A stretch of 64,000 nucleotides of DNA from Octopus vulgaris (Eukaryota), in the NCBI GenBank assembly GCA_951406725.2, contig OX597815.1, positions 45,136,001 to 45,200,000 of the forward strand, read 5' to 3'. The position numbers were made by a program, and so were the translations under genes. The notes beneath the pieces are model-generated. The model saw only the letters and a list, made by a program, of their open reading frames with translations, made no database searches and was not told the DNA's origin. Numbering within the stretch: position 1 is the stretch's first letter; every line of letters starts with the position of its first letter. This document shows, in pieces, positions 33,438-56,754 of the stretch.

Positions 33438-33488
<51 letters not shown>

Positions 33489-33493
<5 letters not shown>

Positions 33494-33818
33494 TGCAGCG
33501 TGGAAGGTGTTTATAAGCCATTTAAGAAACACACAAAAGCCGTTCGATTCACTTCAACATTTAAGTTTAATTTGTCAAAATATTTTCGTCGCTAAAATCC
33601 GCGACCTGTTCACTGACAAAAATCCGTGCTGCATCACGTGAACAGGTCGCGGATTTTAGCGACGAAAATATTTTGACAAATTAAACTTAAATGTTGAAGT
33701 GAATCGAACGGCTTTTGTGTGTTTCTTAAATGGCTTATAAACACCTTCCACGCTGCAATTGTTTTCGTTTCAGCACACGATCTCAGATCAAATTACTTGC
33801 TATACGAGTACATCTCCG

Positions 33819-46526: not shown

Positions 46527-46557
<31 letters not shown>

Positions 46558-46564
46558 GCAAAGT

Positions 46565-47034
46565 AAAGTTTTAAGGTACCGCACGAGTGGAAATATATGT
46601 GAAAGAAAGTTTGAAAATGGAATTTTAAAGATGTTTATTCACTTGACCGGTTTCACTTTTTTAGAAAAAGATTGTCAAAAGTAAAATGTAAAGCTTTGTA
46701 TCAGCTTTGTTGTGTCAAGAGAAAATGTCAGAAAGAGAGGTCAGTTATTCCTCTACAATTTTTGTAAGCTCTTAAATATATCTCCTTCTGTGTATATATC
46801 TATATACTACCAAACAAGCATGATTTTTATTGAACTCAAAATACTTTTTGGAGTATCGTTCTGATTACTTTCTTAAATACTTTCTTGTAAACTGTTTTTA
46901 ACATTTTCTTATTATTATCAACACAACAAAGCTTATACAAAGCTTTACATTTCACTTTTGATAATCTTTTTCTAAAAAAGTGAAACCGGTCAAGTGAATA
47001 AAGATTTTTAAAATTGCATTTGCAGACCTTCTTT

Positions 47035-47038
<4 letters not shown>
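46565..47038. mobile_element. Inverted-pair PLE-like insertion between microsatellites
   Basis: Arms ~46598-46730 / ~46898-47038. Confidence 0.8.
46951..46998 (+). ncRNA. Hammerhead ribozyme variant with U3-A8 core (mirror copy on - at 46638-46685)
   Basis: UUCACUU-UUGAUAA-UCUUUUU CUA AAAAAGU-GAAA-CCGG-UC-AAGUGAA. Confidence 0.8.
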
Positions 47039-47078
<40 letters not shown>

Positions 47079-47081
<3 letters not shown>

Positions 47082-47440
47082 GAGTTAAGAACTGGAGTAG
47101 ATAAGATCCGAGCAACATATGTTTCATAGCGAGCGGAACCTCGGAAGTGATAAATATCCAAGTGAGGTGTATCTCGCAGGCTACCCTTCAGGCCAAGGAT
47201 ATATTGATTAAATGAAAGTTTAATTCTGTTTTAATCTTCCTTGTGTTAACATGTACCTTTCATTTAATCAAGATATCCTTGACCTGAAATGTAGCCTGCG
47301 GTATACACCTCGCCTGGATATTTACCACTTCCGAGGTTCCGCTCGCTATGAAACATATTTAGCCCGGATCTCATCTACTCCATTCCTCAACTCTTGTATT
47401 CTTATTCGCATATCCGGCAATTTTGGATGCCTACAGTGAA
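47079..47440. mobile_element. Inverted-pair PLE-like insertion with long-stem-II HHRs (47111-47194 -, 47281-47365 +)
   Basis: Arms 47079-47219 / 47257-47396. Minus: GGC-CUGAAGG-GUAGC...GCUAU-GAAA-CAUAUG-UU-GCU. Confidence 0.75.
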
Positions 47441-56192: not shown

Positions 56193-56500
56193 TATCATAA
56201 GTTGAAGACGGGAAGGATGACTTCCCTTTGCAAATACTGACAGGACACAGAAAGTGTGTCTATGGCCAGCTGGAGGAGTGTGTCCTCCTGGGGTTAAAAA
56301 CTACAGTAGCATCCACCCTTAGGGGTTAGCCATATTGAAATGGCAAAAATACGTCACGATGTGTTACCGCTACTGTATATAACTCACTTTGATATTTATC
56401 ATTGTTTGATTTCACTTTTTCAATATCAGCGACAGTGGGCGCTGGAAAAAGTATAAGTATTTGTGAAGGAAATCTAATTCTCGGCGACAACTATGATTGT

Positions 56501-56545
56501 CACACGCTGACGAGAGGTCAATACCTCGAAACTCGAGTCCGTGTG
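56501..56545 (+). ncRNA. Type I hammerhead ribozyme, copy 2 (canonical, intact)
   Basis: CACACG-CUGACGA-GAGGU CAAU ACCUC-GAAA-CUCGAG-UC-CGUGUG. GUC cleavage after 56539. Stem I extends via UAUGAU/AUCAUA. Confidence 0.92.
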
Positions 56546-56709
56546 TATCATAAGTTGAAGACGGGAAGGATGACTTCCCTTTGCAAATACTGACAGGACA
56601 CAGAAAGTGTGTCTATGGCCAGCTGGAGGAGTGTGTCCTCCTGGGGCTAAAAACTACAGTAGCATCCACCCTTAGGGGTTAGCCATATTGAAATGGCAAA
56701 AATACGTCA

Positions 56710-56754
<45 letters not shown>

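Follow-up and report, generated by a model that had tools for sequence, protein, structure and literature searches.

A U3-A8 minimal hammerhead motif in an inverted pair of truncated PLE 3' ends from Octopus vulgaris

The window analysed here is a stretch of 64,000 nt of the Octopus vulgaris genome (contig OX597815.1), and is part of a 2.8-Gb genome in 227 contigs. It contains a locus with two hammerhead motifs on opposite strands. We consider it probable that two 3' ends of a Penelope-like element (PLE), 5'-truncated and inverted relative to each other, make up this locus, each with the U3-A8 minimal hammerhead motif of its family. In full tandem transcripts of the element this motif would likely show weak cleavage, restricted to the dimer, while the locus itself is predicted to be inert. 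The features of the locus are as follows.

46951..46998, plus strand: minimal type-I hammerhead motif with a U3-A8 core, a stem II closed by U·U and a palindromic ACCGGU; predicted cut after 46991
46638..46685, minus strand: second copy of the motif, U3-A8, with the core UUGACAA at 46678-46672 and C17 at 46645; equal to the family majority sequence
46738..47038, plus strand: 5'-truncated copy of a PLE 3' end, about 300 nt, with internal deletions and no tail, followed by (AC)n; 75-87% to the long copy L061 by blastn
46549..46719, minus strand: inverted copy of the same PLE 3' end, more strongly 5'-truncated, ending in (AT/AC)n; 94% to L061 over 153 nt
46556..46596, minus strand: optional tail of about 40 nt, on the minus-strand arm only; copy ends cluster at about 46593-46600 or about 46561-46572

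In the plus-strand copy, a 7-bp stem I (46951-46957/46992-46998) encloses the core UUGAUAA (46958-46964) and U46965, a 6-bp stem II (46966-46971/46975-46980, CUUUUU/AAAAAG) with the loop CUA, then U46981, GAAA (46982-46985), CCGG and UC (46990-46991). The 7-bp stem I of the minus-strand copy includes one U·G. Stem II is all A-U except for one C-G, and at its base the window and the majority sequences of all three subfamilies have U·U where G10.1-C11.1 would close the stem. The palindromic ACCGGU is also the same in the three majorities, and its duplex was calculated at -8.3 kcal/mol. With 7 and 6 bp possible in stems I and II, 87.5% of the cells were paired, compared with 43-69% in slid controls. 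The preliminary description had listed the UUGA(U/C)AA arms, the 7-bp stem I, the CUUUUU/AAAAAG stem II, the U·U mismatch and GAAA-CCGG-UC, and both the sequence and the scan described below agree with it.

The scan used a descriptor of the minimal type-I motif, with a Watson-Crick 3-8 pair, a stem I of at least 5 bp, a stem II of at least 4 bp and a palindromic loop III of 4 or 6 nt. The descriptor matched the window four times, while each of 100 dinucleotide shuffles remained without a match. The four are the two U3-A8 arms, a C3-G8 motif at +56507 and a G3-C8 motif at -33613, as expected from the earlier statement that three of the four possible 3-8 pairs occur in this one window. In the Rfam scan neither arm was matched by a hammerhead model among the best 150 of 263 matches listed, which extend to scores of about 31 bits and are mostly microsatellite or miRNA artefacts. 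Hammerhead_1 (RF00163) appeared among the listed matches only at 56501-56545, with 32.2 bits, under its gathering score of 34.

The two motifs lie in the arms of an inverted repeat (46600-46715/46921-47036), which are 116 nt long and 92% identical, with microsatellites on either side. It had been pointed out that only N7 varies within the core of the two arms. This is true but uninformative, because the arms are mismatched at just 9 of 116 positions, and the probability that nine differences spare the 11 conserved core positions is about 0.39, which is chance level. At N7, U is a minor allele and occurs in 4 of 64 copies. A second inverted repeat, with 141-nt arms at 89%, adjoins the hammerhead locus at 47078-47397 of the window; its sequence is unrelated and gave no descriptor match.

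The arm had 1,719 first-look candidates genome-wide, 40 of which were scored, with main matches at 93-96% identity. When 30 loci were compared, the 3' end was common and the upstream stops were variable. Two downstream end points about 40 nt apart were observed, with (AT)n or (AC)n adjoining, and an inverted partner was frequent at a variable distance; many family loci are single, and arm lengths and spacers vary. Longer copies extend this 3' end into a gene: L061 and L068 are colinear from the ORF to the tail (2,982 nt, 83%), and in L066 the RT, EN, UTR and motif follow in that order on one strand. Pfam searches of the long copies returned RVT_1 (E=3.8e-9) and GIY-YIG (E=0.0025), of which the latter fails its cut-off. 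The single ORF with RT and then GIY-YIG is present in longer copies and in a sister subfamily (L101-L112) and absent from the truncated window locus. The U3-A8 motif is located on the sense (coding) strand about 2 kb 3' of the stop, or about 2.06 kb in the sister subfamily, which has about 85% identity in the endonuclease and the same two end types as the window family (tail present or absent). The L104 ORF matches RVT_1, and its database homologues have RVT_1 and often also GIY-YIG. A CxxxxCxxC linker stands between RT and EN in the L065 and L104 translations. With GIY-YIG after RT, the family belongs to the EN+ PLEs, and by this linker and the microsatellite flanks it is probably of the Neptune/Nematis type. 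The sister PLE subfamily (e.g. G000:C8:9191500-9198500) is a young one with many near-identical open frames of 776-847 aa, a microsatellite-rich 3' UTR of about 2 kb and a predicted UU cleavage site.

Craig et al. (2021, PMC8557442) described 5' truncation, an inverted truncated copy and a one-sided tail of 30-40 bp for EN+ PLE insertions, a hammerhead near the 3' end of PLEs, and, for Neptune, a CX2-5CxxC linker and a microsatellite bias; the tail is reported to fall between two RT start sites (PMC11167929). EN+ PLE insertions as described in PMC8557442 and PMC11167929 show no structural difference from the window family. Since the 5' truncation, the inverted partner, the one-sided tail and the continuity with RT and GIY-YIG match this published anatomy, the locus is, to judge from its layout, an insertion that holds only the 3' end of an autonomous PLE of the Neptune type. 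The preliminary description had the motif on both strands; one motif per strand is indeed present, but this is a by-product of ordinary PLE insertion, not a case of two cooperating ribozymes.

To describe conservation within the lineage, three subfamilies were assembled: A with 27 copies picked by upstream sequence, B with 13 picked by endonuclease and C with 36 picked by downstream sequence. As the loci were picked by flanking or endonuclease sequence, no subfamily was selected on the core. The three majorities agree throughout the core and the palindrome (0 of 15 positions changed), whereas 23 of 86 positions differ downstream and 24 of 40 upstream. Compared with the downstream part this gives Fisher p=0.02, a modest test, since that flank itself changes rather little. 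The subfamilies differ at N7 (C/A, with U in some copies), at H17 (C/U) and in loop II. One stem II pair changes from U-A to U·G across subfamilies and stays paired. In stem I the terminal pair changes, and one inner pair is U·G, U-A or, in the oldest subfamily, a U·C mismatch. U3 was found in 63 of 64 copies and A8 in 64 of 64. Helix covariation within the lineage, in 8 hand-picked rows, amounted to one double change, which was equalled in 174 of 500 shuffles.

In the proposed mechanism, the inversion and the tail would form during insertion. Two motif copies would pair via ACCGGU and thereby provide stem III, U3-A8 would take the place of the C3-G8 tertiary pair, and multimeric PLE RNA would be processed by a cut after C17. 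In read-through RNA of the locus, the two arms would pair with each other.

The hammerhead fold was never the predicted minimum, and the monomer P(stem II) was 0.10-0.17. For the right arm at 37°C the hammerhead dimer was calculated at -19.5 kcal/mol, two monomers at -16.2 kcal/mol and an alternative dimer at -24.5 kcal/mol. In this rival dimer, the partners of the 5' strand of stem I are the 3' strand of stem II and the GA of GAAA; the rival is favoured by about 5 kcal/mol, a margin that grows to 7-9 kcal/mol for the sister subfamily. With the left arm, two monomers were more stable than the hammerhead dimer at both 25 and 15°C. AAGUGAA occurs twice within window positions 46951-46998, 14 nt apart, and a similar alternative fold is predicted in the sister subfamily. 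Because of this duplication the 5' strand of stem I can pair with either copy, giving an inactive hairpin or the hammerhead. A whole-locus transcript of either strand is predicted to form a 116-bp hairpin that buries the motif (-186/-181 kcal/mol), and with this predicted arm-to-arm pairing the locus is likely silent as a ribozyme. Three raw RNA-seq runs were chosen by species label and about 6% of each was read, at low depth and from fragmented libraries. The window stretch drew 39-52 reads and the 3' end of the sister subfamily 4-6, and the predicted cut site was read through. No pile-ups of read begins or ends were present at the predicted cut in this shallow, fragmented RNA-seq, which cannot decide cleavage.

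The U3-A8 core swap is already published, also in PLEs. Perreault et al. (2011, PMC3088659) reported natural U3-A8 covariation in several hammerheads that are cited as active in vitro. Those hammerheads share the covariation with the window motif, and as described there they commonly have full stems and tertiary contacts, whereas the window motif is minimal and of the dimer type. Cervera and de la Peña (2014, PMC4209133) tied about 1,300 U3-A8 minimal hammerheads to PLEs of Schistosoma mansoni. The minimal hammerhead assayed there had no activity as a monomer and low activity as a dimer, and a review also backs the dimer view of minimal hammerheads (PMC6765202). Opposite-strand pairs of minimal hammerheads 100-700 bp apart are likewise described, and G10.1-C11.1 is termed highly conserved in those of PLEs (PMC4209133). 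From that account, the S. mansoni Cercyon motifs have in common with the window motif the type I topology, a long stem II, a palindromic loop for stem III and U3-A8, and the S. mansoni motifs sit in the PLE terminal repeat, as in the window family; the window motif differs from the Cercyon motifs by U·U for G10.1-C11.1, a nearly all-A-U stem II, a Neptune/Nematis-type host and a 7-bp stem I. Non-LTR retrozymes, as described in part in a preprint (bioRxiv 10.64898/2026.07.22.740005), have PLE-derived type I hammerheads, as here. The window family is autonomous and dispersed, unlike their tandem monomer arrays, to which a tandem family of about 359 bp described below is closer. In an anole PLE, hammerhead cleavage was reported to be dispensable for insertion in vitro, and an engineered C3G/G8C double mutant of the hammerhead partly restored cleavage (PMC11167929). 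The role of PLE hammerheads is to be judged against activity that is low in vitro and against one in vitro system where insertion did not need cleavage.

The motif could also descend from a PLE hammerhead that no longer cuts, being kept in this AU-rich lineage as a protein-binding or RT-start structure beside the tail, or as a hairpin-dominated switch. The U·U at 10.1-11.1 and the predicted dominance of the alternative folds would fit such a loss of cleavage, as would RNA reads that cross the predicted cut site, the conservation of the 90 nt downstream as well (63 of 86 positions) and the anole PLE hammerhead mutants, which were reported to have no effect on insertion (PMC11167929). Against such a loss stand 11 core positions and a palindrome that are constant in three subfamilies, with N7 and H17 varying inside the hammerhead rules, and a relative at 57% amino acid identity that retains a hammerhead with a different Watson-Crick 3-8 pair. 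Moreover, nearest-neighbour energies neglect the tertiary contacts of the core, which weakens the folding argument for a motif that has stopped cutting. We regard the loss of cleavage as unlikely.

The 116-nt inverted arms at 92%, and the inverted partners at many family loci, are also what would be expected of a fold-back or MITE DNA element with terminal inverted repeats, in which the hammerhead look would be an AU-rich coincidence. However, the arms and spacers have no constant length and many loci lack a partner, the 5' truncation is variable and the element continues into a gene with RT and GIY-YIG, and the descriptor had no match in 100 shuffles. The MITE or fold-back identity was rejected, being largely refuted by the link to the ORF, and we give it very little probability. 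It is harder still to believe that the locus is a working two-strand ribozyme device which cuts, for example, sense and antisense host transcripts. Both cores are intact, but with arms that differ so little chance alone would often leave them so (P≈0.39, as above), and the RNA of each strand would hold one motif and its complement, which are predicted to pair. We retain the inverted pair of truncated PLE 3' ends as the preferred reading.

The preliminary description had further proposed an independent compensatory swap in another PLE-like family. Membership in the PLEs is supported by the RT and GIY-YIG domains and by the tail and inversion, but the independence of the swap is not borne out, because no C3-G8 ancestor of the lineage was found and all three subfamilies are U3-A8. 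Such an ancestor was sought through one related family, which gave A3-U8 instead; the related families sampled are A3-U8 or U3-A8. A literature search on C3U with G8A found nothing.

Other 3-8 pairs were found elsewhere in the window and in the related PLE family:

33571..33620, minus strand: G3-C8 minimal hammerhead-like motif in an inverted element (33488-33760) with a one-sided tail and an (AT)n flank
56501..56545, plus strand: C3-G8 hammerhead of another family (element 56300-56710), with a 6-nt palindrome and a direct terminal repeat of about 60 nt
G000:C6:124656000-124659500, minus strand, core at 2680: A3-U8 example (L203), the fourth possible 3-8 pair

The motif at 33613 has a 7-bp stem I, a 5-bp stem II with G10.1-C11.1, an AAUAUU palindrome and a predicted UU cut site. 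Its repeat family has 461 candidates genome-wide, and G3-C8 was present in 30 of 31 regex matches from 20 loci; no PLE ORF was linked to this family. A chance match in a palindromic repeat was considered for this motif and set aside in view of the stems, G10.1-C11.1, the one-sided tail and the conserved core. The A3-U8 motif belongs to a related Neptune-type PLE family (L203-L218) with 57% amino acid identity over 633 residues, which was sampled by endonuclease (16 of 150 matches examined). The A3-U8 core was present in 13 of the 16 loci, while one had a damaged core and two were without any. This motif has a 2-bp GC stem II, a palindromic CCGG and a stem I of 4-6 bp, and lies about 300 nt 3' of the endonuclease. 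With U3-A8, C3-G8 and G3-C8 in the window and A3-U8 in the related PLE, all four pairs are present in this genome. Any Watson-Crick pair at 3-8 is reportedly tolerated in some hammerheads, according to work attributed to Przybilski and Hammann in 2007. Our literature search, in which colon spellings were not matched, found no report of natural A3-U8 or G3-C8 core families, and an earlier listing is possible.

Genome-wide pattern counts were made with the 3' box GAAACCGGUC fixed; they are confounded by family and reflect family sizes. The U3-A8 pattern had at least 1,245 matches (control 15), which come only partly from the window family, and the other states had 244 for C3-G8 (control 16), 136 for C3-A8 (9) and 42 for U3-G8 (12). 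As read from these patterns, positions 3 and 8 go together across families and the paired states dominate. An alignment for 3-8 covariation had been suggested as a check. Across families the counts, though confounded, point that way (244 and 1,245 paired versus 136 and 42), but within the lineage U3 and A8 are both fixed and the family alignment therefore cannot test covariation. Much of the C3-A8 count, among the matches listed, is a fixed 28-nt repeat match with C3, A8 and no evident stem II. The purine-3/pyrimidine-8 pattern had 2,212 matches against a high control of 1,019; by eye, the first 100 listed of the 2,212 comprised 85 A3-U8, 8 A3-C8, 6 G3-C8 and 1 G3-U8. The same GAAACCGGUH box, together with a U3-A8 or C3·A8 core, was also seen at L127, L129, L131, L132, L150, L151 and L208, in families that look unrelated. 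Given the U3-A8 cores in such further families, U3-A8 is common in this genome.

The tandem family of about 359 bp is retrozyme-like (L073-L079, L088-L090, L133-L149 and L152; e.g. G000:C4:80856700-80858500) and contains U3-A8, C3·A8 and C3-G8 subfamilies; the 56300-56710 element of the window is about 70-76% similar to its distant members, and the C3-G8 motif at 56501-56545 is thus a distant relative at about 70%. The copies with the C3·A8 mismatch stand in tandem arrays. For a tree, 49 rows were picked according to their state and positions 3, 7 and 8 were masked; its root was set by a distant outgroup. U3-A8 was basal, and 11 C3·A8 and 24 C3-G8 rows fell in one clade (100/97); the C3·A8 group was weakly supported (90/51), and four state changes were needed. 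The tree suggests that the swap in the tandem family passed via an amplified C3·A8 mismatch intermediate, in a direction that the tree does not fix.

Taken together, these families might serve as a natural allelic series to show how much cleavage is needed by PLE-type elements, a broader reading that we put forward tentatively and with more doubt than confidence. One animal genome would then hold amplified hammerhead families of all four Watson-Crick 3-8 pairs (C3-G8, U3-A8, G3-C8, and A3-U8 in a PLE 57% identical in protein), plus a tandem family in which U3-A8 is basal to a split of C3·A8 and C3-G8, so that the unpaired intermediate of a compensatory swap would itself have been amplified. 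The window family would add an AU-rich stem II with a closing U·U, which may alternate between the active dimer and an inactive hairpin. The 3-8 pair kept in four ways in related families argues for selection on the active-site pair, and from the amplification of a mismatch subfamily it seems that a broken pair can be tolerated for a short time. The window motif has its value as one member of this panel, in which the U·U closing pair and the four-pair series, with its mismatch intermediate, are most worth a bench test.
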